Shown here: positions 6,790 to 47,583 of the stretch, in pieces
Layout: each line of letters begins with the position of its first letter
Position numbering within the stretch: the stretch's first letter is position 1
Source: Bryobacterales bacterium
GTDB taxonomy: Bacteria > Acidobacteriota > Terriglobia > Bryobacterales > UBA6623
Direction of reading: 5' to 3'
Assembly (NCBI GenBank): GCA_965207255.1
Contig: OZ242276.1
Location: 2,081,916 to 2,145,915, forward strand
Length of the DNA: 64,000 nucleotides
Translations under genes and position numbers: made by a program
Notes under the pieces: generated by a model
What the model saw: the letters and a program-made list of their open reading frames with translations, nothing else
Database searches by the model: none
Told to the model about the DNA's origin: nothing

Positions 6790-8574
6790 TTATTCACTCT
6801 TGCTGCTGTCAGGAATGCTCTGTCGAGCGAGATTCTCTGTGCGCAGAGGGTCTCCAGTCTGACGCATGAGGTCGATCAGACCAGCCGTAAATCCCGCGAT
6901 CTCGCCCGGTGACCCCTCCCTTACAACTTTCCGCAGTGCCTTCCCAACAATTCTGTCGTCATCCCTGCGGTCTGCCACATAGCGTAGAGCGCGCCCTAAG
7001 TCAAGACCGTCCAACGTGCCTGACCTGTGTGGTTCGATTGAAGTACTCTCTTTGCGAGTTGGTGGAGTTCCGTCCTCTGCTTTGAGACTTCCGCGAGATA
7101 CCTGAAGGTCTCCGTGGGCTTCTAGTAGCTCTCGCCCTCGGGGTGAGGTTCCGGAGGGCTCTGCAATACTCTCTGAAGCAGTCTCAAGTTCCCTGCGGCG
7201 CTTGATCAGCAAGGTCTGGCCAATCGCCAGCTTGAGCCATTGCCAGTTGAACTGCTTCAACGGAGATTGAATCGGTTCACTCATGGCCTCGGCACGCCCC
7301 AATCCACGAACATACAATCCGCCGTCCTCCAAGATCGCAAGCGAGTCCGCCCGAGTCCTCGGCGGTGACCAATGCAACAGATCCGGATAGTCATGGCTCG
7401 GAGGCTGCCCGCCTGAGGCAATTTCCGATAGGCGAGCCGCTTCGGCGCGAAAGAGTTGGGCATCCAAGACGTCAATCGGGGGCTCGGATTCGGCAGTTAT
7501 CCCAAGAATTGCACCCGCCATCGTCGCTATCGAGTCGGTGTCAGTACCAATAGCGTTCGCCGCGACCTGCAATGACTCTTTGGGCCGCGGTTCGCACCAA
7601 GTCAAGGCGGTGGCGGCCACCGCTGTGAGTATTCCGCTACCTCGCCGAGCCGGATCTTGAAGCCCAAGACGCTCCACGATTGCGCCGTATCGCTCAGCCC
7701 CTGAACCATCGGTCGGAATCTCTCGAGCGCAGTCGATTGCATCCCGCGCATCGGCAACCGCTTGGGACCATCCCGCGTTGAATGATCCCGACTCCCGCTC
7801 AAATACACCAAGCCAGTACGTTCCGACCTCCCGGTCAGATTTAATAATCTTCGGAAGGCTTGCAGCAATTTCAACGCATTGCGAGAGGTCGGCTGGGGAA
7901 GGGCTGCGGCCGGAATTCAAGGTCCAAGCTAGCGCCAAGGAGTGGAGGACCGAACCCATGAGCCCAGTCGGGTGCGAGTGGGTGCAAACGGTATTTCGGA
8001 TTACATCGAGTAGGAAACTATCGGCATCGCCTGGAGAAGCCGCTGCCCAGATGTGCGGCTGCACGCGCATAGCCGCACCATTCCCTCCCGAATTGGCCCA
8101 TCCCTTGAACGTATTGGCAAACCACGAAACGTTGGGCTTGGCCAAGTGCTCTGCTGCGGTACTTGTCGCACGGCCTCCTCCAAGCCCGTAACTAAGCCAA
8201 ACCGGGAGTTCAACCTTAGCGAAGACCTCCACGTCGAAGCCATCGGGCCCTATCGCCCGCCCAGTCGCGAGGCGCAATTGCGAATCGTCCGAATAGCAAC
8301 CTCTGGGCAGGGTAGCCGTGACGCCCGTGCGCCCACCGATCCGCCGGCCCCATTCAATGGGCGTGCGAAGCGGTTCGCCGGAAGTTCGCCGCGCAAGGCC
8401 ACGGGCATCGGTCAGTTCGCTGATCCATCCGAGTGCATCGCCGTACGCTGCCCAAAGCCCCGACCGCTCCACCTTGATTCGATGGTCGCCAACCTCTGAC
8501 GCCTTCGTAGCAACATTCAACGGTCCGGCACAGCCAGTCGGGGCGTTATTGGAGAATAAGCCACGGCTCGTCAT
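6790..8574 (-). CDS. ADP-ribosylglycohydrolase (DraG/ARH family) with a C-terminal extension of about 200 aa
   Basis: ARH signatures are present: YGDALGWISE, CYSDDSQLRLA, GGNGAAMRVQPH, GTDTDSIATMAGAILG. The start was chosen at ATG 8574 because it forms an ATGA overlap with the stop (8571) of the upstream gene. The ORF-track extension to 8691 would overlap that gene. Confidence 0.85.
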   Translation of the reverse strand: MTSRGLFSNNAPTGCAGPLNVATKASEVGDHRIKVERSGLWAAYGDALGWISELTDARGLARRTSGEPLRTPIEWGRRIGGRTGVTATLPRGCYSDDSQLRLATGRAIGPDGFDVEVFAKVELPVWLSYGLGGGRATSTAAEHLAKPNVSWFANTFKGWANSGGNGAAMRVQPHIWAAASPGDADSFLLDVIRNTVCTHSHPTGLMGSVLHSLALAWTLNSGRSPSPADLSQCVEIAASLPKIIKSDREVGTYWLGVFERESGSFNAGWSQAVADARDAIDCAREIPTDGSGAERYGAIVERLGLQDPARRGSGILTAVAATALTWCEPRPKESLQVAANAIGTDTDSIATMAGAILGITAESEPPIDVLDAQLFRAEAARLSEIASGGQPPSHDYPDLLHWSPPRTRADSLAILEDGGLYVRGLGRAEAMSEPIQSPLKQFNWQWLKLAIGQTLLIKRRRELETASESIAEPSGTSPRGRELLEAHGDLQVSRGSLKAEDGTPPTRKESTSIEPHRSGTLDGLDLGRALRYVADRRDDDRIVGKALRKVVREGSPGEIAGFTAGLIDLMRQTGDPLRTENLARQSIPDSSKSE

Positions 8575-9260
8575 TGGAACACCTCCGGGGCATAGCTCAC
8601 CCCGACATCCAACTGAAGACCGGCGAGAGATCCTCGAATTTGGTCCACGGCATCCTCGCTCTGGACGTAAATTCGCTGGAGATGCTTGCACGACAACTCG
8701 CCCGGGTATAGAACCTCGGCCTGCCTATCCGTGGGCCATCCCAGCTGTTTATCGGATCGGCTGTGGGCTTGCCCGTAGCGACCAACCACGCTGTCCGCGA
8801 ACATGCGTTGGAAGCCGGCCAGGCCCTCGAATCGAAGGCAGGAGGGATAAATGTTATTTGTGGTCGTGAAGACCACTCCTGGATGAGCCAGAATCCGAGG
8901 TAAGAATGACAGAACAACCCATGGGTTCTTGTCAGCTGCATGCCATTTCCTCGAGCTATCGAACATCCAGTCGTTTATGCGTTCTATCGAGAGACTAACA
9001 TAGTCCAACCATTGTTGATCCTTCCGGAAGTCAGTGTTGGGTCTGTATACATGTTCCAGATAGCTGTCATGCGGCAGTCGGCTTCGACTCTTCAGGGCAC
9101 CAGAGGCCAGCACACCCACACAACCACTGAACGTGGTGAAGTGAACTACGCTAGTTATCCCGACTCGCTTCGCAGCCGCTAGGACCTCTGGGCATCTCGG
9201 CAGGGAGGCGATCTCGTGAGGTGCTCGAGGAATCGCCTGATGCAATGATTCCGCGGACAT
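8571..9260 (-). CDS. DarT-like (DUF4433-like) ADP-ribosyltransferase candidate
   Basis: The order of motifs resembles DarT: VVHFTTFSG (H-x-T), LDYVSLS, VVFTTTNN, TDRQAEVLYPGEL..IYV (catalytic-Glu strand). It sits between the helicase and ARH genes with a 4-nt gap and a 4-nt overlap. The assignment is by eye only. Confidence 0.5.
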   Translation of the reverse strand: MSAESLHQAIPRAPHEIASLPRCPEVLAAAKRVGITSVVHFTTFSGCVGVLASGALKSRSRLPHDSYLEHVYRPNTDFRKDQQWLDYVSLSIERINDWMFDSSRKWHAADKNPWVVLSFLPRILAHPGVVFTTTNNIYPSCLRFEGLAGFQRMFADSVVGRYGQAHSRSDKQLGWPTDRQAEVLYPGELSCKHLQRIYVQSEDAVDQIRGSLAGLQLDVGVSYAPEVFQ

Positions 9261-9264
9261 GAAA

Positions 9265-10665
9265 CTAAACCTCCACCAATGTATAGGTGTCCGGGTCTAG
9301 CAGGTCGATCACCGTCGACTGCTCTCCGGGCTTGTAGCCAACCGAGACGGTCTTGCGGGCCCGTCCAACAGCCATCGCAACGAGTCGACGCAAGGATTGA
9401 AGAGTACCATCGCCATCCTCTCCGCCGTGTGGAGTGACCTCTTGATTGATCCCGGGCAAGAGCACATGGTCGAATTCAAGGCCCTTTGCAGAATGGATGG
9501 TGGACAGCGCCACGAGTTCGGGACCGCTTGGCCATTCACGCTGTCGAGTCAGTTCGCAAAACGGAATATCCCTTTGGTTGAGGGCCTGACGGGCAAATGA
9601 GAACCAGCCACCGCCGAGAGGGTGCAGGATCGCGACGGTCTCGCCAGCGTTCAGATTGGGTTGAACCCGTCGCAACATCTGGTCTAACTGCGCGCCATAG
9701 CGACCCGCCACTACCTCAGGGGTTTGCCCCTCCTCCTGACACGCGTTCTCATCGGGCGCTACACCGTCCTCCTCTTGAGGCAGCCCGGCAAGCAGGGACC
9801 GGGCAAACCGGGCGATCTCCTTCGTATTGCGATGGTTACGTGAGAGCGTGAAGACCATTTCTGGCCTCAACTCAATGCCGAGTTCTCTCCATTGGAACCC
9901 CTGCGGATAGATTCTCTGTGCGGCATCAATAATGAATGTAGTTACGTGATCTTGTTCTAGGTGTGAAAGTACGGCACGGAGCTGATTCGCAGAAAGGTCC
10001 TGCGTCTCGTCCACAACTACAACGTCGTATCGTTGACTCTTTGCGTGGGCGACTTCAACGGCAATATCGTTCCAATCAACTTGTCCATCGGCTCGTTTTC
10101 GTTTCTTGTACGGTTCGATCACTTGGGTGAGCAGCCTTGTCCTAGTCTGCTTGTTGACGGCAGGTGCCCTGCCCCGTCCGGTGCGTAACGCGTCGATGTA
10201 CAGTTCCCGAGCATCGGCCGGGAAACGCCCTAAAACGTATTCAATCTCGTCGATGAAGTAATTCATATCCTTCGCACGCACACCGACCTGCCCCAACAGC
10301 TCAGTAAGGATCTCATTTCGATCATTGATGAGATCTCTGCTGCCTAGAAGTGACAAGGCCCATTGAGCGAAGGTCTCTACTGTCAAGTCGAGTCCTGAAT
10401 TGGAACCGACCTGTTCCTGCGCAAGCTGCTTGACATATCCCCGCAATGTCCGATTGAACGTTAGCACTAGAACCTTGACGGGCTGGTCGGAACGTAGGCG
10501 TTGCCTCCGGCTCAGGCGCGAAGCACAGAGTTGGCGAAGCCGTAACAGGGCTGCAGTGGTCTTGCCGCTGCCAGCGGCCCCTCGAATGAGACGGAATCCC
10601 AGCCCTGCATCCGTCAAGATCGGAAGTTGTTCGGGGGTAGGCTTGACTTGCTGTAGGACGCGCAC
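9265..10665 (-). CDS. compact UvrD/Rep-like superfamily-1 helicase (466 aa)
   Basis: It has a GTG start. SF1 motifs are present: GAAGSGKTT (Walker A), VLVLTFNRTL, VVVDETQDL (motif II), FIIDAAQRIY, SRNHRNTKEI, STIHSAKGLEFDHVLL, VAMAVGRARKTVSV. No extra nuclease domain is evident. Confidence 0.85.
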   Translation of the reverse strand: MRVLQQVKPTPEQLPILTDAGLGFRLIRGAAGSGKTTAALLRLRQLCASRLSRRQRLRSDQPVKVLVLTFNRTLRGYVKQLAQEQVGSNSGLDLTVETFAQWALSLLGSRDLINDRNEILTELLGQVGVRAKDMNYFIDEIEYVLGRFPADARELYIDALRTGRGRAPAVNKQTRTRLLTQVIEPYKKRKRADGQVDWNDIAVEVAHAKSQRYDVVVVDETQDLSANQLRAVLSHLEQDHVTTFIIDAAQRIYPQGFQWRELGIELRPEMVFTLSRNHRNTKEIARFARSLLAGLPQEEDGVAPDENACQEEGQTPEVVAGRYGAQLDQMLRRVQPNLNAGETVAILHPLGGGWFSFARQALNQRDIPFCELTRQREWPSGPELVALSTIHSAKGLEFDHVLLPGINQEVTPHGGEDGDGTLQSLRRLVAMAVGRARKTVSVGYKPGEQSTVIDLLDPDTYTLVEV

Positions 10666-35966: not shown

Positions 35967-36024
35967 TGACCTATGCCTCGCAAGAGCCATCTCACGGCGC
36001 CCTGTTGTAGCCGATCGGTCCCGA

Positions 36025-36897
36025 TCAGTCAACTCGATGCTGCAGGCACTGATGGAATTCCTCCATTGCGAGGACGGCATCCGCGGCAAGTGTTGTTGGA
36101 TCGATCTCTGGATGCTCGATCCGCATCTGCTCGGCATAAGCCCGAGGGCCTTGCGCACTGATGACCGCGAAGTTCGCCCAGAGATCATCGAACGCAGTCT
36201 TGATCGCATCAATCTCGTCACCAAAGCGATCCAGCACAAGAGTGGCTGCGACTGAAGCGCCGCCTGCGTCGTTGTGCAGGAGAACAAATGCGATGTCGTA
36301 CCAGTCCTTTGGCTTGCGTCGCGAGAACGCTGCTGCTGCCTTGGCTAGGAGGAATCCTGCGACACCCGCGATGTTCACTTCGACCCGGTGGGTAACTCCC
36401 CCGATTCGAGCACTTAGCTGACGGGCTTCGGCGTCGCGAGACGCGAATCTTGTGCCTCGTAGGTTAAGGGCCCCAAGATTGTCGCACTCGTCAAACGCGA
36501 TCGTCACCCCTGAGCGGGTGCTGCTTAGATCGGCAAGCAGCTCGAATTTCACTACAGTCGGAACAATTGGCCCTTCGGCTCGCCAAGACCAGATCTGCCC
36601 TTTCCCCGGGACGAACTCAGCGTTACGAAGCGCTCGTTCAAGTCGGGCTGTGTTCACGGTGCCGCATGCGATCTCAAGATCAACTTGGACGTCAACGTCG
36701 GTCGTGCCTGCATGCTTGAACTCACTTTCTGCGCATAGCAGCTCAGGAACCAACCCTCCAAGGACTACGAACTCCGGCCGCTCGCCATAGTGATGGACGA
36801 TGCGGACGAGCGCCGCTTCCGCCGCGTCGCGAGCAACCCGCGACCGAAGAGGGTCGCTTCCCGGTCTCGAATCACCGCGGTCAGAATGGAATATCAT
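36025..36897 (-). CDS. nucleotidyltransferase-fold protein, AbiEii/DUF1814-like (candidate)
   Basis: The ATG at 36897 overlaps the HerA 3' end by 17 nt. It has the minimal NTase pattern FVVLGGLVPELL...HAGTTDVDVQVDLE and a later KPKDWYDIAFVL segment like AbiEii-family toxins. Confidence 0.45.
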   Translation of the reverse strand: MIFHSDRGDSRPGSDPLRSRVARDAAEAALVRIVHHYGERPEFVVLGGLVPELLCAESEFKHAGTTDVDVQVDLEIACGTVNTARLERALRNAEFVPGKGQIWSWRAEGPIVPTVVKFELLADLSSTRSGVTIAFDECDNLGALNLRGTRFASRDAEARQLSARIGGVTHRVEVNIAGVAGFLLAKAAAAFSRRKPKDWYDIAFVLLHNDAGGASVAATLVLDRFGDEIDAIKTAFDDLWANFAVISAQGPRAYAEQMRIEHPEIDPTTLAADAVLAMEEFHQCLQHRVD

Positions 36898-38716
36898 CGT
36901 CGTTGTCGAGCAGCGCGGGTCTGGCAGCATTCGGAACTGTTGCAGGCTGTGTCGGGACTGCACCCCCTGTGTTGGTCGGGGCGGGGCTGGCCCATACCGA
37001 GAAATCGGGATCGGTCGATTCCGGCACCGGTTCCGCAACTGGCGCAACTACTCGGACCGGCATCGCAACGCTGCTGCCAAAAATAACCGCCTGCTGCCTT
37101 GGAAGACCGGCAATTCGGTCAAGTTCCTGTCGATCAACCCACTCCCCAGCCGCGCTCACTACTCGGAGATCTTGTTCGGACGTCAATCGGAATACGGCCC
37201 AAGTCCCACATTGTGCAAGCACAGTGGGGGATATCTCGGCGGGACGCTGAGTGCTAACCCACATGGAGATACCGAACTTGCGACCCTCCTTAGCCAGTCT
37301 CTCGTAGGCCAACATTGACTGGGGAGCATCATCCCCCGAAACGATTTGTCTCAGATAGTGATGAGCCTCCTCCAATACCAATAAGGTCGGGTGCGTTGCT
37401 CCTTGGCCCTGTCGAAATCGCTCGAACGCAAGCAGCTCCAGTAGGGCGCCAAGGATTACTGGAAGAAGATCATGGGCGACGTTGCGGAGATTCACTATAT
37501 GGAGTTTCCACTGATCCTGAGCCCCGCCGAAGATCTGTGTGACCAGATCCGAGGACTCAGTCTGCCAATCCAGTGAGCCGCGACTAACTGGCGGACCACC
37601 ATTGACATCGACTACCGCCGTGAACAACGGGTCCTCCGAATGACGGTGAATGCGCGTTATTAGGGGAGCGACGTTTCCGTATTGAAAAGCGCTTCTCTCG
37701 GGGCCATTCCTCCCTGGCTGTAGACAGTGGCTGTCTGCAGCTAGACACGCCAAGGCTCGCATGTGGGGCCGTACTTGGGCTTGATTGGCTGGATTGGTCC
37801 TGAGATTATCAATCGCCTGCTGAGCCTCAACGCTAGCCCCGGGTCGGCAATCGTCGAATAGCACGGCCGCGTTAGCACCAGCAAGCCCGACTCCCTTGGT
37901 GTCCGGGAACCACTTCACATAGCGCAGGCTCTGTAATGCAAAATTAAGTGCCGGTCGCTGGGTTCTCTCGCTCGGAAGCAATAGTCGTCCCAGGCCATGC
38001 CTCCCGAGAGCCACATACGGAATCCGGAGGTTCGCGTTTCGACCGCCAAGGACTGAGATCTTGGTCTCACCGGGGCCACTAGCATGGGGCGAGAACGCTT
38101 GCTGGTACTCGCCATTGATGTCAAACACCACCACTCGCGCACGCTGCCGGCTGAGCATCTGCTGCACGGCCGCCGCAGTAAAGCAACTCTTCCCTTGGCC
38201 AGTCCCACCGAGAACTGCCACATGTCGGCTCAGTAGCCCCGCGAGTGAAACTTCTAACGCGCCGCCACCTCGAACATCCTCTCCTAACCGAATTGTGTCC
38301 CTTCCTTCTGAGGCTTGCTTGAGAATTGCGCCCAGCTCGTCGAGCGACAACGGAAGGGCTTCGGCTCCAAGGGCAGGTGCCAGAAGTGAGTCCGCCAAGA
38401 ACTGTGGCCCCTTAGCGTTTCGCGTGAGCGATCCCACCACCACGGCTTCGATGTGCCGCAACGGCTCTCCACTTGCCGATGTCGAGCCGACCCCGGCTCG
38501 ATGTGCTTCACGCGGCTCAGCGAACGACAAGGAGCGAACCCTCATCACTAGGAGCCTGGTTCCACCATCCACCCCAAAGAGACCCCCAACGTCCGTTACT
38601 CCGGTCACGCCCTCTCGGTGCGAAGCAATGTGGCCTTTGTGAGTGTCTCGCAAATTGAGTGTGACCCTCGACCCGTCGATAGAGACGACATAGGCAAACG
38701 GCTCGCGCCCGTTCAC
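36881..38716 (-). CDS. HerA-like (DUF87) ATPase, partner of SIR2
   Basis: The GTG start forms a GTGA overlap with the SIR2 stop. It has Walker A VLGGTGQGKS and Walker B HPTLLVLEEAHHYL. Its 611-aa size is typical for HerA of SIR2-HerA systems. Confidence 0.85.
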   Translation of the reverse strand: MNGREPFAYVVSIDGSRVTLNLRDTHKGHIASHREGVTGVTDVGGLFGVDGGTRLLVMRVRSLSFAEPREAHRAGVGSTSASGEPLRHIEAVVVGSLTRNAKGPQFLADSLLAPALGAEALPLSLDELGAILKQASEGRDTIRLGEDVRGGGALEVSLAGLLSRHVAVLGGTGQGKSCFTAAAVQQMLSRQRARVVVFDINGEYQQAFSPHASGPGETKISVLGGRNANLRIPYVALGRHGLGRLLLPSERTQRPALNFALQSLRYVKWFPDTKGVGLAGANAAVLFDDCRPGASVEAQQAIDNLRTNPANQAQVRPHMRALACLAADSHCLQPGRNGPERSAFQYGNVAPLITRIHRHSEDPLFTAVVDVNGGPPVSRGSLDWQTESSDLVTQIFGGAQDQWKLHIVNLRNVAHDLLPVILGALLELLAFERFRQGQGATHPTLLVLEEAHHYLRQIVSGDDAPQSMLAYERLAKEGRKFGISMWVSTQRPAEISPTVLAQCGTWAVFRLTSEQDLRVVSAAGEWVDRQELDRIAGLPRQQAVIFGSSVAMPVRVVAPVAEPVPESTDPDFSVWASPAPTNTGGAVPTQPATVPNAARPALLDNDDDIPF

Positions 38717-39428
38717 GTAATACCTCCGGAACGGGGTGTTGACGAGTCGAATAGCTCCCGATTCTTCTTGAACATGTCATGGATCTGTGCGGTCTGCTCG
38801 TCGTAGATGACCGGGTCCGGCAAGTGATTCACAAACGCGCTAAAGTACGCATCCGTATGGCCTCCGACGATGGTTACCTGGGGGAGTTCGAGCCCGATTA
38901 AGCGTTGTGCCCAATGGTTGCAATCATCGAGAACAAGCGAATCTTCATCGCGGCGCGCCTCCGGAAGATAGAGCACAAGTTGCAAGGTCGGGTTCTGAAG
39001 TGCACTCGCAAGGATTCTGTTCAAATGCTCGTCCGCGAACGAGTAGCCATTTGTGATGAGGCAGCTTTGTGGTCGAGCCAGGAACTCGGTAAACCTACGA
39101 AAGAGTTCGCCGAATACGAACCCGACAGTCTGCATATACTTCGCAGCGCTGGGGTAGACGAGGTTTCCGGCCAAGTCTTCAACTCCCCCGGTGATGAAGC
39201 TGCGAATGTGAGGCCAGAGGTACGCGGTTGAGAATTCCTCGACCGTTGCGTCCTTAGCGATACGCCATGTGAGAGAGCCATGGAGCTTAGCCAGGTAGAC
39301 GTTATACGAGCCGAAGCGCGCCTCCCCACGCGCAAGCACGTTTCGATAGCCAAGGTCAAAATTGTGAGGCGAGAAAACTCGACGATGAAGTCCAGCGAAG
39401 CCGCTTGTGACCTTGAGGCCTATCGTTT
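38713..39428 (-). pseudogene. SIR2-family (SIR2_2) defence gene, C-terminal fragment, split by an IS
   Basis: After the TSD the frame continues ...TIGLKVTSGFAGLHRRVF...LAKLHGSLTW...TNGYSFADEHLNRIL. It joins seamlessly to the N-terminal fragment at 40839-41423 to give a protein of about 430 aa. Confidence 0.8.
39421..39428. repeat. 8-bp target-site duplication TATCGTTT (left)
   Basis: It is identical to 40839-40846 and immediately flanks the IS inverted repeat. Confidence 0.85.
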
Positions 39429-39552
39429 GGGGCTTATATACAATCCTAACCAAAGCCACCAATTTTGCTTGTAGGAAAAACCTGCGCAATCCATCTCTAA
39501 ATCATTGATTGCGCTTGACTTGTGAAGCTGTAGTGGTTACCATAGTAGTGTT

Positions 39553-40548
39553 ATGAGAACACGCCGGAAACACGACCATCCGGGCCCGGGCAAGGCCCGC
39601 CGCAAGGGCATTTCCATCGTGCAGCTGATCAGGCTTTTCCCAGACGACCAGCACGCCGAGGATTGGATTGCCGCGCTGCGCTGGCCAAACGGCCCGAGCT
39701 GCCCGCACTGCGGCTCCACGAACGTGCAGTCTGGCGCCAAGCATCCGAACATGAGCTATCGCTGCCGGAAGTGCCGCAAGTTCTTCTCGGTGCGGACCGG
39801 CACGGTCATGCAGAACTCGAACCTCGGTGCCCAGAAGTGGGTCATCGCGGCCTACATGCTGACAACCAATCTGAAGGGCGACTCCAGCATGAAGTTGCAC
39901 CGCGATCTGGACATCACGCAGAAATCGGCCTGGCACCTGGCACATCGCATCCGCGAGACCTGGGACCGCAGCGAGGGGCGCTTCGAGGGGCCTGTCGAGG
40001 TCGACGAGACCTATCTGGGCGGCAAGCGCAAGAACATGCCAAAGCATGTTCGCGAGCAGCTGACGGGGCGCGGCCCGGTCGGCAAGGCGGCGGTTGTGGG
40101 CGCTCGCGACCGCGCCACGAAGCGCGTCGTGGCCAAGGCCGTGGAGGGCACCGACAAGCACACCCTGCAAGGCTTCGTCAAGAACTCTGCGGAGCGCCAC
40201 GCGACGGTCTATAGCGACGAGGCCAGTGCCTACGAGACACTGCCATTCGCGCATGAGGCCGTCCAGCACTCGGTCAGCGAGTATGTGCGCGGGCAGGCCC
40301 ACACCAATGGCGTGGAGTCGTTCTGGAGCATGCTTAAGCGCGGCTATGTGGGGACCTACCACAAGATGTCGCCGAAGCACCTGCAGCGCTACGTGAACGA
40401 ATTCTCGGGACGCCACAATGAGCGCCCGGCGGACACCTTGGAGCAGATGGAAGGCACCATGCTGCGGATGATCGGCAAGCGCCTGCGGTACCAGGATCTG
40501 AAGCGCGCCAACGGGCGGGATTCCGGGGCGCGGGAAATGGCGCTATGA
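39553..40548 (+). CDS. IS1595-family transposase (zinc-ribbon + ISXO2-like DDE domain)
   Basis: It has an N-terminal zinc ribbon CPHCGSTNVQSG...YRCRKCRKFF and a DDE region VEVDETYLGG...VYSDEASAY...HTNGVESFWSMLKRGYVGTYHKMSPKHLQRYVNEFSGRHN. Confidence 0.92.
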   Translation: MRTRRKHDHPGPGKARRKGISIVQLIRLFPDDQHAEDWIAALRWPNGPSCPHCGSTNVQSGAKHPNMSYRCRKCRKFFSVRTGTVMQNSNLGAQKWVIAAYMLTTNLKGDSSMKLHRDLDITQKSAWHLAHRIRETWDRSEGRFEGPVEVDETYLGGKRKNMPKHVREQLTGRGPVGKAAVVGARDRATKRVVAKAVEGTDKHTLQGFVKNSAERHATVYSDEASAYETLPFAHEAVQHSVSEYVRGQAHTNGVESFWSMLKRGYVGTYHKMSPKHLQRYVNEFSGRHNERPADTLEQMEGTMLRMIGKRLRYQDLKRANGRDSGAREMAL

Positions 40549-40594
40549 GTGCCCCGCGCCACACGCCAGCAGCAACGCTAGGGCGTGTTCTAGG

Positions 40595-40783
40595 ATGGAC
40601 ACGATGAGCAAGCCAACGGAGCAGCCCAAGCGACCGCGCGGGCGTCCGGTCAAATACCCTCTGCCCGAGCCAATTGCCGACACTCCCGAGAACATCATGC
40701 GTGCGTTGCTGGCAGCACCGCCCAAAGGCGAGAATAACTGGGACTACATCCAGCGCACAGGACGGAAATCCAAGCGCCGGTAG
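40595..40783 (+). CDS. small IS-internal ORF with an AT-hook-like motif (62 aa)
   Basis: It lies between the transposase stop and the right IR and contains PKRPRGRPVKYP. Coding status is uncertain. Confidence 0.3.
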   Translation: MDTMSKPTEQPKRPRGRPVKYPLPEPIADTPENIMRALLAAPPKGENNWDYIQRTGRKSKRR

Positions 40784-40838
40784 CCGCTTGCAATGAAATG
40801 AAAATTGGTTGCTTTGGTTAGGATTGTATATAAGCCCC

Positions 40839-40846
40839 TATCGTTT
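40839..40846. repeat. 8-bp target-site duplication TATCGTTT (right)
   Basis: It is identical to 39421-39428 and immediately flanks the right IR. Confidence 0.85.
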
Positions 40847-41423
40847 CCGCTGCCCATTCAACCGCGACATCGTAGTTCGTCGTGAATACCCACGGACCCG
40901 GTTGACCCGGTTGCCGCGCAGCCGTGAGCTTACGCAAGAGCTGGCGGTGGCTCGTCAACTGCTCACAACTCATGTCGACCATCGAGGGTAGCTCCCACCA
41001 TGACCGTTGGAGAAGGGAAGCGAGGATGACCGATCGCAGCACGTCAGCTCGCGTTCGAGTCAGTTGCTGGAGCTTCCGGGGTCGCTCTACTCGCTCCCAC
41101 TCAAGCCTCGTGATCTCCAGATCATCAATGAGCTTTTCGACATCGCCATCCGCATTCCCAGCCGCAAAGCCCTCATTTCGAAGCCAGTCGGCGCTCGATC
41201 CGAATTCTGACTGGAAATGACTCCAGACCTCGGCCATAGTCCGGCCCCCTAGTGGCCCTATTGACGCCCCAGCACCGAGAAGAACTCCCACGTTCTCGAG
41301 ACGGAGCACCGCTGCCAAGTGCGCCGCGAGTCCCTCTGGCGTGAGCCACTGACTTCCCCGCCGCGCACAAATCGACTCGTCGTTTGAGGAGGTCGGCTTG
41401 GATGGAGGGATCAACGGTGTCAT
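40839..41423 (-). pseudogene. SIR2-family (SIR2_2) defence gene, N-terminal fragment
   Basis: It reads MTPLIPP...VGVLLGAGASIGPLGG (Rossmann GAGxS) ...VFTTNYDVAVEWAAETI, then runs 7 codons into the IS and stops at 40818. Confidence 0.8.
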
Positions 41424-41584: not shown

Positions 41585-42583
41585 TCAGATCAATTCCCGC
41601 AGATGCTCGGCGGCCTCCTCGCCTCGCACACCGACTACGCGCAAATCGGAATAAACTCGCGGCCAAGGTGCAACTCGTAGGTCATCTCTCACAAGAGCCA
41701 GCGACTTCGACGTGACGGTGGGAAACGGACGCAAAGTCAGCCGCCCGCCCTCAATTGGCCGCAAGTCGGCAATCGAAGCCACCCATTCAAGCCCAGCAAT
41801 CGTCATCCTATCGACGTAAACCTCGCCCGTTGCGACGCTCGTCAGATAAGGCGCCATCACTGACGCAGCTACTGCTCCGGTAGCAGCCCAAGGAATTCTC
41901 TCGATATCCCAGTGCCGACCGATCTCTCGCATCCCGACCACGAAGTCACGCCAAGTTACGCCGACGGTTAAAGCGATAGACGACCTCATCGCTGCCGCTG
42001 CGGTTGCGTAATTGTCCAAGAGCTGGTCCAGATCGGCGATGCGGCGAGCAGAGTTGCGCCCACGACGCGCAGTTGCACTCAACAGACGGAGATCGGTTAG
42101 AGTGCGCAGTGCATTCGTACAAGCTCCGGCGGAAAGCCCGGACATGTCCTGCATGGCACTGACCGTTGCCCCGCCACCGCAGAGCAAAGCTTCGGCGACG
42201 GCAAGGACTGCTGGTGTCCAATGGGGCGGTTTCTGTGTGGCTGGCGAGGGACGTCCACTCCTCGAGACAATCAGAGTGCCCAACACGATCTCCGCAGCAC
42301 CGGTTTCGTCAACCCAGCCCAGACCAGCGGACGAAAGGGCTTCCCGCGCACCTGGGGAAATTCGACGGGCCGCCACAACATCCGGTCGGGTCTTCTGGCT
42401 CGCGATCAGCTCCCGAGTCTGTCTCAGCCCTCCCTCTCCAAGCCATCTGACTTGGAGAGTCTGTCCGTTGAGTTCGAAATCCACCGTATGCTCTTCTGCT
42501 CGTCCGCGCAAGATTCGGACAGAACGCGGGAGCACCGCCGTAACTGCGGCCTCGGCTCGATGAGCAATACGCTTCACAGTCAC
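41585..42583 (-). CDS. AbiEi-like antitoxin / transcriptional regulator (candidate)
   Basis: This is a 332-aa protein. The middle reads like a wHTH (ATVSAMQDMSGLSAGACTNALRTLTDLRLLS). The C-terminal ...VYVDRMT...APWPRVYSDLRVVGVRGEEAAEHLRELI resembles the AbiEi C-terminal domain. It lies 160 bp upstream of the SIR2 start on the same strand. Confidence 0.4.
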   Translation of the reverse strand: MTVKRIAHRAEAAVTAVLPRSVRILRGRAEEHTVDFELNGQTLQVRWLGEGGLRQTRELIASQKTRPDVVAARRISPGAREALSSAGLGWVDETGAAEIVLGTLIVSRSGRPSPATQKPPHWTPAVLAVAEALLCGGGATVSAMQDMSGLSAGACTNALRTLTDLRLLSATARRGRNSARRIADLDQLLDNYATAAAAMRSSIALTVGVTWRDFVVGMREIGRHWDIERIPWAATGAVAASVMAPYLTSVATGEVYVDRMTIAGLEWVASIADLRPIEGGRLTLRPFPTVTSKSLALVRDDLRVAPWPRVYSDLRVVGVRGEEAAEHLRELI

Positions 42584-43027
42584 TCTTCCTTCGAGAGCTT
42601 ATTAACTCAGAGATTCATTATACCTCATGTTCTTTGTGTTATATATCTTGATGCGAGTGTTTTGCACCACCCAAGTTCAATAGGCGGATTCAACTCACGG
42701 TGACAGGGCCAACATTTCGAGCGCGCTCAGGGGCGATCAGTTTCTGAGACTCAGAACTACGGAGAAAGACGGCTACGGCGGCCCCTGAGGCCTATACTTC
42801 AAGGCAGAGTCGATTCTTCAAAGCCTACACTTCTCCTTGATGTTTTTCTCGACATCTCTATTAGAAATGGCACTTCCCACTGTTACGGAGATTCTCAACT
42901 GGTCCAATTCTACGTCAGAGGGGCATTCGTCAATTGGGCCCAATGGCTACGTCGCGAACAAGAGCCCGCGTCCCGACTCGCGTTCTGAGCTGTCAAGCGT
43001 CTAGACTGTCAGCTTAAACAGTGGACC

Positions 43028-44584
43028 ATGAACACATTCTGGAATTCTGGCGACCGCGAAAAGATAGGAGGTCTCGACATCCTCGGCTTAAGACAGCTCG
43101 ATCAAGGGCTCGAAAGTCAATGGGTATCCGGAATAACGACAATCTCGTTTCGCGCGCGGTACTTGACACTCTTGCCCTGGGCCCTGGTGGAATTCTTCGA
43201 GCATGAGCTCAGGCAAGGAGACGGAACGGGCGTCTTTGACGATAGCCGGCTAAGTGAAGTTCTTGCACGTCTCAAGTTCGTTATTCTGGCCGCAACTGCA
43301 ACGGGTAGAGAGCGGGGCGAGTCCGGCGACACCTTCGGCGTCTTGGGCTCTCAACTCTGGTCCGAGCAATTGGACGAGTTTACGAGGAGTGGAAAACTCC
43401 AATTGCCATCCAGTCGTGGCAATGACGTTTACGGCACCTACGTGATGCCATGCAGAGGATTCGGCCTGCTGGCTGGCTCGCAGCGCAGTAGCGATGGAGT
43501 GCCCGTGGTCATTACTCCAAGGGGACGAGATCTACACAAGACTCGGACACCGTTAGAGGGGTGTGAGACGATCCGGTCTCTGGTGCACAACGGAGGGACG
43601 CTATCAGTTGACCACTTGAGAGACGCCGGACGCCACTTCTCCGTGAATGGCCTCCGAGACGGGAACAAGGAACGAGAGCGGCTCATTCAATGGATGTTTG
43701 AGCCCTACGAACGCCGTACGGATGTAACCAGGGTGTACAGTCAGTTCCATGACACAACTAGGTGGGCTGCGGGATTCGTAAGAGACAACGAAATGTCTCC
43801 AGAAGATCTGATTGCGGCGAACTTTCACCGTGTAGCCGGATCTGATCCTGAATCGGTACTGCCTGTCGAGCTGGCGTGGATGGAATACGACCTCCGCAGA
43901 AGGGTCCACTTCGCCTGTGAGCTGCTGCTCGCCGATGTGGCTGGGACCCTCGAGGACCTCGCGTCGGGAACGGTTGATGATGTCGTAAACCGCTGGACGT
44001 CTGTTGAGGGAATCTCACCCGCCGTTCGTAGAGCACTAGGCGTCGAACACCCAATGATGGCCAATACTCTGGCCGACTTGGTGGGCCGGATGCCCGAATC
44101 AGCATTCGGTGCTGGAAGCCTCAACATACGGGAGGGCCGAAATCAAGAGGTGGGAGGCAACCGTGCCCTGTACGGCCTTGGGCTGCTAATCGCCTGCTGG
44201 CGTTGTTCAGCACAGCTTCGCGACGCTGGACTACTGAAGAATCGTAAACATTACATGGAGAAGGCCTTTGATCTGATCGGCAGGAATCGCTCAAGACCCC
44301 TTTCTCACGCAATGCGCGAACTTGCCCTTTACTTGGCCGTCGAACCTCACCTCGTAGCGACGCTAAGGAAGATGGGCCAAGGGCAGAAGTGCTCATTGCG
44401 GTTCTTTCCCGAAGGTTCTGTCCTTCAACCAACTGGAACTGGCGTGACTCCTGGCTTCAGTGGCAGCCGGCTAGGCAACGTGCTCGGCGTGCTGGCAGAC
44501 GTAGGCTTGTTTGAACGATTACCCGGGAGGCGATTCAAATTGACCGAGGCTGGCCACGACAAGTTGTTGAGGAATCTCGCCTAA
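43028..44584 (+). CDS. hypothetical protein (518 aa), no family recognised, possible C-terminal wHTH
   Basis: It is a long ORF in a lower-GC region with no P-loop and no nuclease motif seen. The N-terminus is GGLDILGLRQLDQGLESQWVSGITTISFRARYLTLLPW and the C-terminus is GNVLGVLADVGLFERLPGRRFKLTEAGHDKLL. Its stop overlaps the start of the next gene (TAATG). Confidence 0.6.
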   Translation: MNTFWNSGDREKIGGLDILGLRQLDQGLESQWVSGITTISFRARYLTLLPWALVEFFEHELRQGDGTGVFDDSRLSEVLARLKFVILAATATGRERGESGDTFGVLGSQLWSEQLDEFTRSGKLQLPSSRGNDVYGTYVMPCRGFGLLAGSQRSSDGVPVVITPRGRDLHKTRTPLEGCETIRSLVHNGGTLSVDHLRDAGRHFSVNGLRDGNKERERLIQWMFEPYERRTDVTRVYSQFHDTTRWAAGFVRDNEMSPEDLIAANFHRVAGSDPESVLPVELAWMEYDLRRRVHFACELLLADVAGTLEDLASGTVDDVVNRWTSVEGISPAVRRALGVEHPMMANTLADLVGRMPESAFGAGSLNIREGRNQEVGGNRALYGLGLLIACWRCSAQLRDAGLLKNRKHYMEKAFDLIGRNRSRPLSHAMRELALYLAVEPHLVATLRKMGQGQKCSLRFFPEGSVLQPTGTGVTPGFSGSRLGNVLGVLADVGLFERLPGRRFKLTEAGHDKLLRNLA

Positions 44585-47310
44585 TGCGCCATGACATTCT
44601 GAAGACGGTTAAGGATGCTCGCGACGTTACCAACGCTGTCATCCTCACGCACAACATAGATTTCGTCTTTGTCCAGTCTATCGTCGTCCCCGCCCTCGCG
44701 AAGTGCGGTTCGCCGAAGCTCACCATCTTTGCCGATGCGGAATGCGCAGCTCAAACCTACCAGTATCAGTCTCAGGTGCTGAGTAGCCTTGGCAAGCGTT
44801 ACCGCGTCGTGCCAGTCCAGATGCAAACGGGGTTCAGGTTCCATCCCAAGGCCCTAATGCTCTCCGGCCCAAACGCCGCCACGCTCCTTGTAGGAAGTGG
44901 CAACCTCACGTTCGGCGGATGGCGAGAAAACGGAGAAGTGTGGTGCAAGTTTGGTTCACAGGCGGAGGACATCGACATCTTCGGGGACTTCTACTCGTAT
45001 CTGCACCAAATACTTGACCTCTGCGCAAAACCACGTGACGCCATCGTCGCTGAAGTAGAGGAAGCATTCGATTCCAATACGAGGTCCTGGGCGACGAACC
45101 TACCTAGCACCGGGCGGCTACTTGGGCGCGCCGGCCAGGGTCCGTCATTGCTCCGGCAAATGAAGGCATCCATTGGCACGGATGAGGTCGAGCACCTCTA
45201 CATCTGTGCGCCGTACTTTGATGAAGATGCAGAGGCTGTGCATACGATCTCAGAAGAATTGAACGCGGATTCTACGACACTGCTACTTCAAAGCAAGTAC
45301 ACGAACCTCCCTTCCGAGGCCGCAGCGGGTCTTGGACCACGGTTCAGGATCAGGGCGGCTACCTACAAGTACAAGCAATCTACTGACTCTGACGATCAGC
45401 CCCGGCCCCGCAATGCACCCCTGCATGCCAAGTTCTACGGGATTCAACATAGCGGGCGCGTGACGGTTTTTCTCGGCAGCGCGAACTGCTCCCGATCTGC
45501 TCTAACGATCCCCGGTCGCTTCGGTAATTCCGAGTTGATGGCTCGTATCACCATGACAGCTGACGAGTTCCAAAGCGAGCTCTTGGACGAAATCGCGATC
45601 CAAGACGAAGGGCCGGAACTTCCAAGCGAGGTTCCTAATCTACCTTCCGCCAACGATGAGACCGCGTTCATCCGGATCCTTGCTGCTCGGATGGAGCTAG
45701 GCAACATACGCGTTACGTTTCAGGCCAGCACGGGAACGGCAATACTTCGCGCCCTTCTCGACGGGGTAGCCATCGATCCGGTTGAAGTCGGCCAGAGTTG
45801 GGCCCAGTTCAAGACCAACCAACATCCGAGCATCTTGATGCTGGTTGGAAGGCACGACGACACTGAGGTGCGTTCCCTACCACACTGGATCGATGACGAA
45901 CCTGCCTTGCGAGATTCGGCCCGAGCCCGATCGCTCGTAGGCTCAATTCAAGATAAGGTGCGTCCAAGCGTTTGGGGGGTTGGCGCTTGGACGGACGTAT
46001 TGTCAGAACTCTATAGGCACCTGCAGTACATACCCTCCGTAACCACTAGTCGTAGCCCTCACATCCCAGAAGGACGCGAAGCTCAAGCGGGACCGGTGGA
46101 GTTCGAGTGGAGCGACGTATTTTCTGATGGTTACGGCCTACCAACAAGATCTAGAGCGGCCACGAGACTATGGGAGCACATAGAGGACCGGGTTGACAGC
46201 CTTCGGGCGATGCTGCTCCGTTACTTTGGATTCAAGCAGACAGAGCCTAGGGAGGACACTGAAAGAGGATCTGATGACATAGATCTACCAGACATAGTTC
46301 CGCCTGACGATGATGACGGCAGCCCTGTTGACACGGTCAAGCCCTTGCCCAAGGTCTTTCCTCGATCTGATCCGTCGACTGTGACCGAGAGGGAACGCAG
46401 GAGAGCTAGAAGTGTAGTGACTCAAGTGGTATCCAAACTTGCCGAGCCCGATTTCTTGAGCAAGCGTCCACTCGATGCTCTTACCGGGGATTTGAAAGTC
46501 CTTGCGATAATGCTTCGAGCCGGTCTTGCGGAGAAATGGTTTACAGATCAGGAGTATTTCAAGTCGGTATCGGGCGTATGGCTAGCATTATTCTTCAACG
46601 ATGCCGGTAGTCAAGACGCAGGGTGGCTGGAATGCCGATTTCGGACCGCACCCGACCAGAGAGCATTCGTTGACACAATTCGCTCGGCGGAACTCGCCGC
46701 GGCCCTCGGTTGCTTGGCTCTATCGACTCCGGAAAAGGCCACCGCTCTGGAGCACGTAAGGTTTGAACTAGCGTCCGCTCTCGGCGTCGCCCGGTTTCCG
46801 TGGCTTTGGCAGGACGGTGGCAACGAGCAGATCTCCCATGAGATCAGTGAACTCTTGAGGCACACCGTGCGAGGCAGTTGTCCCGACTGGACAAATGTCG
46901 AGCGGAGGTGGTTGACGCTTGTTCGAAGAGGCCGTGCCCTCCACCGTTTGGAGTCCGCGATCGCAAGGATCGGCATCGCCAAACTTCGAAGTCGTATCGG
47001 GCAGACGAATGTCGCGGCCGGCGAACTCCTGTGGCAGAATCCATATGGCTTCTGTGTCGCCAAAGAGGATCGCGACCGGGCCAGTATGCAGAGCGGCCCG
47101 GTACTTAAGCTCCAGCACGGTGACGAGGAGCAACGGTTTAAGGGGCGGTATTTGACACCGGTCTCGGGATTATTGGAGGAGGGTTTGCTAAGCGATGACG
47201 TGATGTCGGCAAGGGAGCGGTGGGAGCTGCTGCTGATGGTGGAGAAGCTGAAGATCAAGCCGAACTCAGATTGCGCGACCGCAAGATTAGGTGAGGCACC
47301 AGCACCATGA
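44584..47310 (+). CDS. PLD-superfamily (double HKD) nuclease/phosphodiesterase-like protein with a large uncharacterised C-terminal region (908 aa)
   Basis: Two HKD motifs are present: FHPKALMLSGPNAATLLVGSGNLT (His codon 44842) and LHAKFYGIQHSGRVTVFLGSANCS (His codon 45424). The remaining 570 aa or so have no recognisable motif. Confidence 0.8.
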   Translation: MRHDILKTVKDARDVTNAVILTHNIDFVFVQSIVVPALAKCGSPKLTIFADAECAAQTYQYQSQVLSSLGKRYRVVPVQMQTGFRFHPKALMLSGPNAATLLVGSGNLTFGGWRENGEVWCKFGSQAEDIDIFGDFYSYLHQILDLCAKPRDAIVAEVEEAFDSNTRSWATNLPSTGRLLGRAGQGPSLLRQMKASIGTDEVEHLYICAPYFDEDAEAVHTISEELNADSTTLLLQSKYTNLPSEAAAGLGPRFRIRAATYKYKQSTDSDDQPRPRNAPLHAKFYGIQHSGRVTVFLGSANCSRSALTIPGRFGNSELMARITMTADEFQSELLDEIAIQDEGPELPSEVPNLPSANDETAFIRILAARMELGNIRVTFQASTGTAILRALLDGVAIDPVEVGQSWAQFKTNQHPSILMLVGRHDDTEVRSLPHWIDDEPALRDSARARSLVGSIQDKVRPSVWGVGAWTDVLSELYRHLQYIPSVTTSRSPHIPEGREAQAGPVEFEWSDVFSDGYGLPTRSRAATRLWEHIEDRVDSLRAMLLRYFGFKQTEPREDTERGSDDIDLPDIVPPDDDDGSPVDTVKPLPKVFPRSDPSTVTERERRRARSVVTQVVSKLAEPDFLSKRPLDALTGDLKVLAIMLRAGLAEKWFTDQEYFKSVSGVWLALFFNDAGSQDAGWLECRFRTAPDQRAFVDTIRSAELAAALGCLALSTPEKATALEHVRFELASALGVARFPWLWQDGGNEQISHEISELLRHTVRGSCPDWTNVERRWLTLVRRGRALHRLESAIARIGIAKLRSRIGQTNVAAGELLWQNPYGFCVAKEDRDRASMQSGPVLKLQHGDEEQRFKGRYLTPVSGLLEEGLLSDDVMSARERWELLLMVEKLKIKPNSDCATARLGEAPAP

Positions 47311-47507: not shown

Positions 47508-47583
<76 letters not shown>

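Follow-up and report, generated by a model that had tools for sequence, protein, structure and literature searches.

The Azaca defence system, which acts against T-even phages, was reportedly described by Millman et al. in 2022. It is made up of ZacA (a DUF6361 protein), ZacB (a phospholipase D (PLD) protein) and ZacC (a superfamily 2 (SF2) helicase), and cleavage of phage T4 DNA by Azaca depends on all three proteins as well as on the Walker A motif of ZacC; mutation of conserved ZacA residues had no effect (bioRxiv 10.1101/2025.07.10.664194). Here we analyse a pair of genes in a 64,000-nucleotide stretch of contig OZ242276.1 from a Bryobacterales bacterium, which we refer to as the window and to which coordinates refer unless another locus is named. 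The pair encodes proteins of 518 aa (P1) and 908 aa (P2), and an original prediction made from the DNA letters had singled it out as a candidate two-gene defence system, implying that it had no known relatives. That implication did not hold, as profile models of ZacB and ZacA relate the pair to three-gene Azaca. From its sequence, the pair appears to be a helicase-less variant of an Azaca-type PLD nuclease system with a putative function in defence.

The relationship emerged from a scan of the P1 family (37 members) and the P2 family (38 members) against the 5027 models of PADLOC. ZacB was the top model for P2, matching the window protein with an E-value of 2.2e-15 and all 38 family members, the best with 2.2e-20. 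The match covers only the PLD core, positions 72-350 of the 586 in the profile, and the remaining part of P2 is unrelated to ZacB. For the P1 family, ZacA was the sole recurrent model (32/37 members, best E-value 2.1e-5), and its register was constant, with P1 residues ~35-116 aligned to profile positions 50-114 of 396. The corresponding Pfam family, DUF6361 (PF19888), matches 4 of the 37 P1 members; the window P1 itself scores 13.2 bits against a gathering threshold of 25 (E 0.044) and has no PADLOC ZacA match. This indicates remote homology of one module, at the N-terminus of P1, to ZacA rather than membership of the family. Two adjacent genes are unlikely to find their best or only recurrent matches in consecutive components of one system by chance, and we therefore regard the pair as evolutionarily related to ZacA-ZacB.

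The likeness to Azaca extends to gene order, a non-catalytic DUF6361/ZacA-type gene preceding a double-motif PLD nuclease gene in both, and to the defence-island settings in which both are found. The differences are considerable. None of ~80 loci contains a ZacC SF2 helicase, and neither P1 nor P2 has a nucleoside triphosphatase (NTPase) motif; helicases that do occur near the pair are sporadic and form parts of neighbouring restriction-modification (R-M)-type systems, with none adjacent in the window. P1, at 518 aa, is longer than the ~390-396 positions of the ZacA model, and about 80% of it is without a counterpart there, while P2, at 908 aa against the 586 positions of the ZacB model, carries a ~570-aa extension of its own, leaving ~60% of the protein without a counterpart. 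Since the helicase is absent in every locus, the scores lie far below family level and most of the sequence is unmatched, the pair is not an Azaca system. Scores so far below the family thresholds also mean that PADLOC and DefenseFinder would not call the pair, and Pfam, NCBIfam and PADLOC detected it as no system. A search of the literature found no description of the pair, of an Azaca-like two-gene form or of PDC-M27, the PADLOC candidate considered below. The proposal that the pair is novel thus survived profile searching in the sense that no described system claims it, with Azaca as a distant relative.

Both genes lie on the plus strand and begin with ATG, P1 occupying 43028-44584 and P2 44584-47310. 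The TAA stop codon of P1 (44582-44584) shares one nucleotide with the ATG of P2 (44584-44586), so that the junction, CGCCTAATGCGCC, contains the translationally coupling TAATG overlap (44582-44586) that had been noted originally, with the same coordinates. Homologues from other phyla share both N-termini (M1, F4, W5, N6 and G8 are invariant in P1; M1 is invariant in P2, and R2 and D4 are nearly so), which confirms the start codons and with them the overlap. In the closest relative of the window locus, L029, P1 starts with GTG at the unchanged position. Chance open reading frames (ORFs) are excluded because each protein has hundreds of full-length homologues across phyla: 590 for P1 and 499 for P2 at E <= 1e-3 in a 90%-clustered database, most of them, among the matches listed, near full length and 36-92% identical. 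An exhaustive profile search for P1 returned 749 clusters at 50% identity with E <= 1e-3, and 206 with E <= 1e-30, among 1.84 billion; the best 150 were close family members only.

The two genes were proposed to form a unit, and in other genomes they are indeed linked. P2 lies directly downstream of P1 in all 12 genome loci fetched via P1, which come from Acidobacteriota, Gemmatimonadota, Eisenbacteria, Desulfobacterota, Latescibacterota and Myxococcota, and immediately downstream in 22/22 P1-fetched loci once metagenomic contigs are included. The reverse sample comprised 62 loci fetched via P2, including those of the isolates Sorangium cellulosum So0157-2, Geomonas propionica Red259, Asticcacaulis sp. 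AC460 and Mesorhizobium loti CJ3sym; 56 of them had enough upstream DNA, and of the six that did not, L041 is cut short by an assembly gap. P1 ends within 60 nt of P2 in 51 of the 56, and on inspection two more (L077 and L094) proved adjacent, giving 53/56. The three exceptions are L086, which is pseudogenised with insertions, and L054 and L087, which are truncated P2 remnants; as all three carry truncated or disrupted P2, every intact P2 has an upstream P1. The junction ranges from -11 to +14 nt in 16 loci besides the window, and pairwise distances among P1 proteins track those among P2 proteins closely (r = 0.94, Mantel 0/5000). ORF clustering over ±10 kb in 13 loci recovered no third conserved gene, helicase included, and the other recurrent ORF clusters inside the pair were opposite-strand shadow ORFs. 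P1 and P2 are therefore an obligatorily linked, translationally coupled and co-evolving two-gene unit. We also came across decayed copies with frameshifts, insertions or truncated P2 without P1 (L086, L094, L054 and L087), of which some frameshifts may be long-read assembly errors. Such copies are consistent with what would be a dispensable accessory function.

P2 is predicted to be a PLD-family phosphodiesterase/nuclease effector of the H-K-N type with a long C-terminal extension (AlphaFold2 (AF2) model, mean predicted local distance difference test score (pLDDT) 75.7). Residues 1-340 (44584-45603) form a single-chain pseudo-dimeric PLD catalytic domain, recognised by Pfam PLDc_2 (3.6e-10), by ZacB and by Foldseek. 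PLDc_2 (PF13091) is the only Pfam match on P2, in two stretches and with 40.2 bits against a cut-off of 27, and the Foldseek matches are likewise confined to the PLD domain. The best-matching folds, Tdp1 (E ~2e-8, target template modelling (TM) score ~0.5), the PPK1 C-domains and vaccinia F13, are all single-chain double-motif enzymes, followed by SauUSI (1.2e-4), NgoAVII (2.2e-4), NucT (2.9e-4) and also Zucchini. Across the family, Pfam RE_NgoFVII matches 5/38 members and Tyr-DNA_phospho matches 2/38, weakly.

The PLD superfamily is defined by two H-x-K...G-S-x-N motifs that form one active site, and P2 contains both. The first runs F86-H87-P-K89...G104-S-G-N107...N116-x-E118 (44839-44937) and the second H281-A-K283...G298-S-A-N301...N315-x-E317 (45424-45534). 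H87, K89, N107, H281 and K283 are invariant in the family and N301 is nearly so, and in each half the catalytic H, K and N and the downstream N-x-E persist unchanged down to plasmid and archaeal versions of 20-28% identity. The canonical Asp positions are occupied by S94 and Q288. The earlier reading of two complete HKD motifs was thus right about H, K and N and slightly overstated about the Asp, which is absent from both motifs, and the predicted active site is of the H-K-N type as in Tdp1. That P2 is a self-contained double-motif PLD phosphodiesterase, as first supposed, agrees with its nearest folds being those of nucleic-acid enzymes.

Beyond the catalytic domain the AF2 model resolves four further regions. 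An all-beta domain at residues 360-446 (45661-45921) is confidently predicted and has no profile match. It is followed by an acidic linker (net charge -8) of low confidence, part helical and part disordered, at residues 447-600 (45922-46383), and by a basic (net +6) helical domain at residues 601-805 (46384-46998) with conserved tryptophans W652, W666, W740, W742 and W776. Residues 806-865 (46999-47178) comprise a helix and then a small beta-barrel of Sm/Hfq-like topology, with strands at 815-853 and with G813, L816, W817 and Q818 invariant; a profile search of the PDB gave this barrel a weak match to the Hfq-like 3hfn (E 0.0037), and the AF2 topology agrees. Sequence searches of the PDB with the P1 and P2 family profiles found no Azaca or other relative beyond this weak hit. 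The original prediction had seen no P-loop and no helicase motif in the pair, and Pfam and a family-wide motif check concur: there is no conserved P-loop in either family. Walker-A-like strings occur in 5/37 P1 and 6/38 P2 members, and we rejected them as NTPase sites, the lysine not being conserved and the P1 string lying inside a helix. One glycine-rich strand-loop-helix element within the PLD domain, GRAGQGPS at P2 residues 181-188 (45124-45147), reads as a Walker A sequence (GRAGQGKS, AKAGKGKT) in 4/38 relatives, again without conservation of the lysine.

P1 is mostly alpha-helical, lacks a catalytic motif and is a candidate adaptor or sensor of the ZacA-like kind; it is unrelated to P2. 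Its AF2 model is confident (pLDDT 87.7, predicted TM score 0.87), and a Foldseek search with it returned no match in the PDB or BFVD (best E-values 0.39 and 0.18, TM ~0.1). Conservation is high along the entire length. The N-terminal conserved module, residues 17-120 (43076-43387), is the part that is remotely ZacA/DUF6361-like by Pfam and PADLOC profiles, and its invariant residues include D17, R22, D25, Q26, E29, W32, T37, T38, R42, R44, Y45 and W51. The protein had been called unrecognised, which stands for its fold in the PDB and BFVD and falls for this module. At the other end, the AF2 model, the alignment and the charge delimit a basic (net +6) helix/beta-hairpin domain at residues 441-518 (44348-44581), marked by the invariant motif R447-K448-x-x-x-x-Q453-x-C455-S-L-R-F459. 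A winged helix had been suspected here; winged helix-turn-helix profiles match the P1 family weakly (HTH_45 in 2/37 members, E 0.009), and the domain may be winged-helix-like and bind nucleic acid.

Other known PLD proteins resemble P2 in part. The PLD restriction endonucleases BfiI, NgoAVII/NgoFVII and SauUSI and the nucleases Nuc/NucT share its catalytic fold, and from established PLD chemistry metal-independent cleavage of DNA is expected. These enzymes, however, have one motif per chain and dimerise, whereas P2 holds both motifs in one chain, and the restriction enzymes carry B3-like DNA-binding domains or a helicase and an SRA-like domain where P2 has other C-terminal domains and an obligatory partner. 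Among structures, Tdp1 matches P2 best; it too is a single-chain pseudo-dimer, and its H-K-N motifs likewise lack the Asp of HKD. It is only 10-13% identical to P2, and it is a eukaryotic housekeeping repair enzyme without a partner gene, in contrast to the mobile accessory character of the pair. DrmC and Mokosh use PLD domains as defence effectors, and DrmC models match 22/38 P2 members weakly, but DrmC is a protein of ~150-260 aa with a single motif that works with DrmA/B/D/M, none of which is linked to the pair, and the Mokosh PLD is fused to or paired with an RNA helicase, again not linked here. Against NCBIfam DISARM_DrmC_I, P2 scores 13.2 bits where the cut-off is 133, and the neighbourhoods contain no conserved DrmA or DrmB. 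PDC-M27 is an untested PADLOC candidate whose definition requires both an A and a B component. Its B model, PDC-M27B, gives a match to the PLD domain in 38/38 P2 members (best 1.8e-14), though a partial one (residues 85-230 in the window P2), and PDC-M27A matches no member of the P1 family, so that the pair has the B component only.

In other genomes the pair keeps varied company. Its flanks contain toxin-antitoxin (TA) modules, helix-turn-helix genes, GmrSD_C and MC2/CTD6 conflict domains, as well as Mrr, GIY-YIG, NACHT-like proteins, SIR2, BrxC/BrxL fragments and AAA_15/21, and mobile elements are represented by a group II intron, resolvase/Tn3, an integrase and transposases. The L030 pair lies in a conjugative element with TrwC, TrwB, VirB8/B11, ParB and ArdC. 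An identical 518-aa P1 (P0032), with its P2, occurs in the unrelated neighbourhoods of L026 and L027, one of which is a 50.9-kb contig flagged circular that carries Tn3, resolvase and IS1595 genes; identity of P1 in two contexts points to recent horizontal transfer. Neighbourhoods of this kind are typical of mobile genes with an accessory or defence role. Several of them hold recurrent modules of their own. A DUF6094 methyltransferase, a ~229-aa gene and an SNF2-like helicase lie beside the pair in two distant genomes (L003, 2756-7352; L010, 14304-19051), and a PLD-SNF2 helicase fusion (~1050-1080 aa) with a large Eco57I/MmeI-type methyltransferase recurs beside it as well (L025, 381-6618; L034, 1182-9677, with an additional SMC/AAA_15 ATPase; L052; L059; L066). 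The latter module looks DISARM-like.

Such neighbours raise the question of whether the pair is itself the restriction half of an R-M-like system, protected by a separate methyltransferase and replacing the Mrr-helicase part of a Type ISP-like protein. R-M-type neighbours (Type I, Type ISP, MmeI/Eco57I or DUF6094 methyltransferase) lie within 8 kb in 14/62 loci, and some are placed suggestively. In L030 (6453-9986) a 1177-aa protein with N6_Mtase and Type_ISP_C domains ends 15 bp before P1, an arrangement shared by L030-L032, and in L009 (6360-9731) a homologous 1123-aa N6_Mtase + Type_ISP_C protein lies ~265 bp upstream of P1. Both lack the Mrr nuclease, helicase and coupler of a Type ISP enzyme, and L030 and L009 may represent an R-M-like variant of three genes, with the PLD pair in the role of the absent nuclease-motor head. 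On the Myroides odoratimimus plasmid pFM-G13 (L020, 5385-9502), a distant pair of 537 and 838 aa sits between hsdS and hsdR with gaps of 80 bp and 20 bp. Against an R-M role, a methyltransferase is missing within 8-10 kb of the pair in the majority of loci, the window and its closest relative among them, and lies directly upstream only in a minority of lineages; without a methyltransferase linked to it, a methylation-sensitive nuclease would kill its host. In L008 (4715-9586) the Type ISP enzyme at the same upstream position is complete (1623 aa) and self-sufficient, and because no defence genes are commoner than those of R-M systems, clustering with them is expected. R-M-type neighbours are frequent but clearly facultative, and we consider it unlikely that the pair is one half of an R-M system.

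An abortive-infection or TA-like module, in which P2 would be a promiscuous nuclease toxin restrained by P1 until a phage trigger or loss of the element frees it to kill the cell, would fit the tight 1:1 coupling and co-evolution of the two genes, the frequent TA-rich neighbourhoods and the carriage on plasmids and a conjugative element. PrrC-type back-up nucleases, which act as suicide nucleases, sit in type I R-M operons, and the position of the Myroides pair recalls them. Type II TA modules, however, combine a small labile antitoxin with a small toxin, and proteins of 518 and 908 aa that match no TA family do not resemble them; P1 is conserved throughout and has a nucleic-acid-binding-like domain, unlike a simple antitoxin, and an inhibitor-first gene order and genes of this size are atypical for TA modules. 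In Azaca, moreover, ZacA is required for cleavage and is not inhibitory (bioRxiv 10.1101/2025.07.10.664194). Like the R-M proposal, this one seems improbable to us. A role in DNA repair or mobile-element maintenance, with a Tdp1-like P2 that would strip adducted protein from DNA or process intermediates of transfer or replication, strikes us as very improbable. It draws on Tdp1 as the best structural match, on the Tdp1-like H-K-N motifs, on the weak Tyr-DNA_phospho matches of two family members and on the relaxase and coupling protein that the L030 pair adjoins, but any single-chain double-motif PLD aligns best to Tdp1, here at the low identity given above, and the best sequence profiles are the defence PLDs ZacB, PDC-M27B and DrmC. 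The patchy distribution, variable neighbourhoods and foreign composition also speak against a repair function, as do the decayed copies, which are what would be expected of dispensable accessory genes.

We therefore favour, with a probability of roughly 0.6, a self-contained mobile two-gene nuclease module that derives from ZacA-ZacB stock, is independent of ZacC and likely serves anti-phage or anti-plasmid defence. In such a module P1 and P2 would assemble into a complex, the ZacA-like N-terminal module of P1 docking onto P2 in the way presumed for ZacA and ZacB. The basic C-terminal domain of P1 and the helical and Sm-like domains of P2 would bind nucleic acid and take over from the Azaca helicase the recognition or licensing of targets, and the PLD site would cut invading DNA without metal or ATP via a phospho-histidine intermediate. 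Self DNA could be spared in one of two ways: a foreign feature such as modified DNA may be recognised, an idea already put forward for Azaca and phage T4; alternatively, where a nuclease-less Type ISP-like methyltransferase lies directly upstream, protective methylation may serve.

Several points weigh against this favoured reading. The similarity to ZacA is weak, at 12-22 bits per member over ~80 residues only, and the comparison with Azaca is one with profile models of ZacA and ZacB. As cleavage by Azaca needs the Walker A motif of its helicase, an ATP-independent relative is no trivial extrapolation. The PLD fold alone cannot tell DNA from RNA or lipid substrates, enrichment in defence islands was judged qualitatively, and no P2 homologue was found in phage genomes, a result that we count as neutral. 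We advance more tentatively, as a possibility, the broader proposal that P1-P2 is a widespread class of ATP-independent PLD-nuclease immune systems, sister to Azaca, in which built-in sensor domains (a partner protein whose fold is without a match in the PDB, and the helical and Sm-like extension of the nuclease) replace the motor. In some lineages this class would plug into a nuclease-less Type ISP-like methyltransferase-specificity protein or a type I R-M operon, giving an R-M architecture not recognised before.

More distant versions of the pair were sought by tblastn of the PLD domain against plasmids, which returned 28 records at 21-33% identity. All six records inspected, from Sphingopyxis, Myroides, Prevotella, Streptomyces, Miltoncostaea and the archaeon Halobaculum, encode a PLD protein (B) of 789-889 aa preceded by an overlapping upstream gene (A) of 495-602 aa; the search thus returned two-gene A+B modules and no true Azaca operon. 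Profile-profile comparison confirmed the PLD domain in 6/6 (98-99.5%), and the C-terminal regions of these distant B proteins have diverged beyond recognition. For the A proteins, the same method against the P1 profile confirmed that of Prevotella over near full length (96%) and the C-terminal ~320 residues of that of Myroides (95%), whose N-terminal module was found via hmmsearch; the Sphingopyxis protein gave a weak but collinear match. The A proteins of Streptomyces, Miltoncostaea and Halobaculum were not confirmed, and we treat these actinobacterial and archaeal proteins (L022-L024) as positional analogues only.

In the window itself, the pair stands at the right-hand end of a low-GC island. 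Its GC content (0.563 for P1, 0.565 for P2) is below that of the whole window (0.616), and at third codon positions its GC content is 0.60-0.62, compared with 0.76-0.79 for the housekeeping genes that flank it just downstream. It had been described as the lowest-GC stretch sampled; the GC is low, with a 60-nt minimum of 0.417 at 45242 inside P2, but not uniquely so, as the low-GC block extends beyond the pair over ~36.3-47.5 kb (mean 0.576) and the region at 7-11 kb is similar. The AT-richer intergenic region of 444 bp noted upstream was recovered with a GC content of 0.493. It lies at 42584-43027, between P1 and a divergent 332-aa gene on the minus strand, is 87% identical to its counterpart in L029 and presumably contains the promoter of the pair. 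Its plus strand showed no sigma-70 consensus promoter, and a scan for consensus promoters and terminators gave nothing exceeding shuffled expectation. Rfam placed no structured RNA in or around the pair above threshold, the 444-bp region being without a match; a Hammerhead_1 hit at 45559-45601 (plus strand) inside the P2 coding sequence, with 22.5 bits against a gathering threshold of 34 (E 0.058), is most likely a chance match. The tRNA-Ala said to follow the pair directly is present but 197 nt past the P2 stop and on the minus strand: tRNA-Ala(CGC), at 47508-47583, has its 3' end facing the island and marks the right-hand boundary of the low-GC block.

The neighbours of the pair are SIR2-HerA (HerA 2.6e-250), an IS1595 element and the 332-aa gene. 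SIR2-HerA and AbiE-like genes had both been named as neighbours, of which SIR2-HerA is there, if disrupted by an insertion sequence (IS), and the AbiE-like gene was not found by Pfam or PADLOC on the window neighbours. The IS1595-family element (~39424-40843), with 43-nt inverted repeats at 39424-39466 and 40801-40843 and its transposase at 39553-40548 (plus strand), splits the minus-strand SIR2 gene into an N-terminal half at 40818-41423 and a C-terminal half at 38713-39489, and SIR2-HerA in the window is probably inactive. The 332-aa gene (41585-42583, minus strand) has no Pfam or PADLOC match and is 87% identical in L029. It lies upstream of SIR2-HerA in the same orientation and is not conserved beside the pair in other loci, and it may be a third gene of this SIR2-HerA operon.

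The L029 contig, on which P1 is 92% identical, carries an island collinear with that of the window at 88-90% nucleotide identity, from a 217-aa gene through HerA, SIR2 and the 332-aa gene to the pair. The sole break is the 1.4-kb IS1595 element, and because the SIR2 gene of L029 lacks the insertion, the insertion in the window is recent. The left end of the L029 island (1949-2875) has a tyrosine integrase and a Transposase_mut IS, neither of which is present at the corresponding end in the window (~36009-36276), and a search of the window found neither an att-like direct repeat of the tRNA-Ala 3' end nor an integrase; the window island may no longer be mobile. The proposed defence-island context is borne out by this horizontally acquired island and by the defence neighbourhoods in other genomes. 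A second low-GC block, at 6790-10665, consists of three minus-strand genes: DarT (8571-9260; PF14487, 2.4e-21), a 633-aa ADP-ribosylglycohydrolase (6790-8691) where the DarG macrodomain would be expected, and a UvrD-like helicase (9265-10665) beside DarT. This block may be an unusual DarTG-like defence locus.

What appears to be new in the pair is an Azaca-type ancestry and effector without the defining motor and with different accessory domains. Candidate defence systems are numerous, which tempers the interest of any one of them, but strict linkage, breadth of distribution, an unmatched P1 fold, the contrast of a helicase-less form with Azaca and the coupling to Type ISP-like proteins make this pair a good experimental target. 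P1 offers a confidently predicted fold without a solved relative, and a nuclease predicted to be independent of metal and ATP, with a programmable partner, could interest enzymologists. That the pair recurs, in a fusion-like arrangement, next to Type ISP methyltransferase-specificity proteins without a nuclease suggests that restriction 'heads' are exchanged as modules between systems. We know of no role for the ZacA protein of Azaca, and the pair and Azaca together constitute a natural experiment in which an A-B core presumably works without an NTPase; their comparison should reveal the role of ZacA-type proteins and the contribution of the motor. If the pair is a defence system, it would be a conserved two-gene addition to the immune repertoire across many bacterial phyla, with more divergent forms on plasmids and possibly in archaea.

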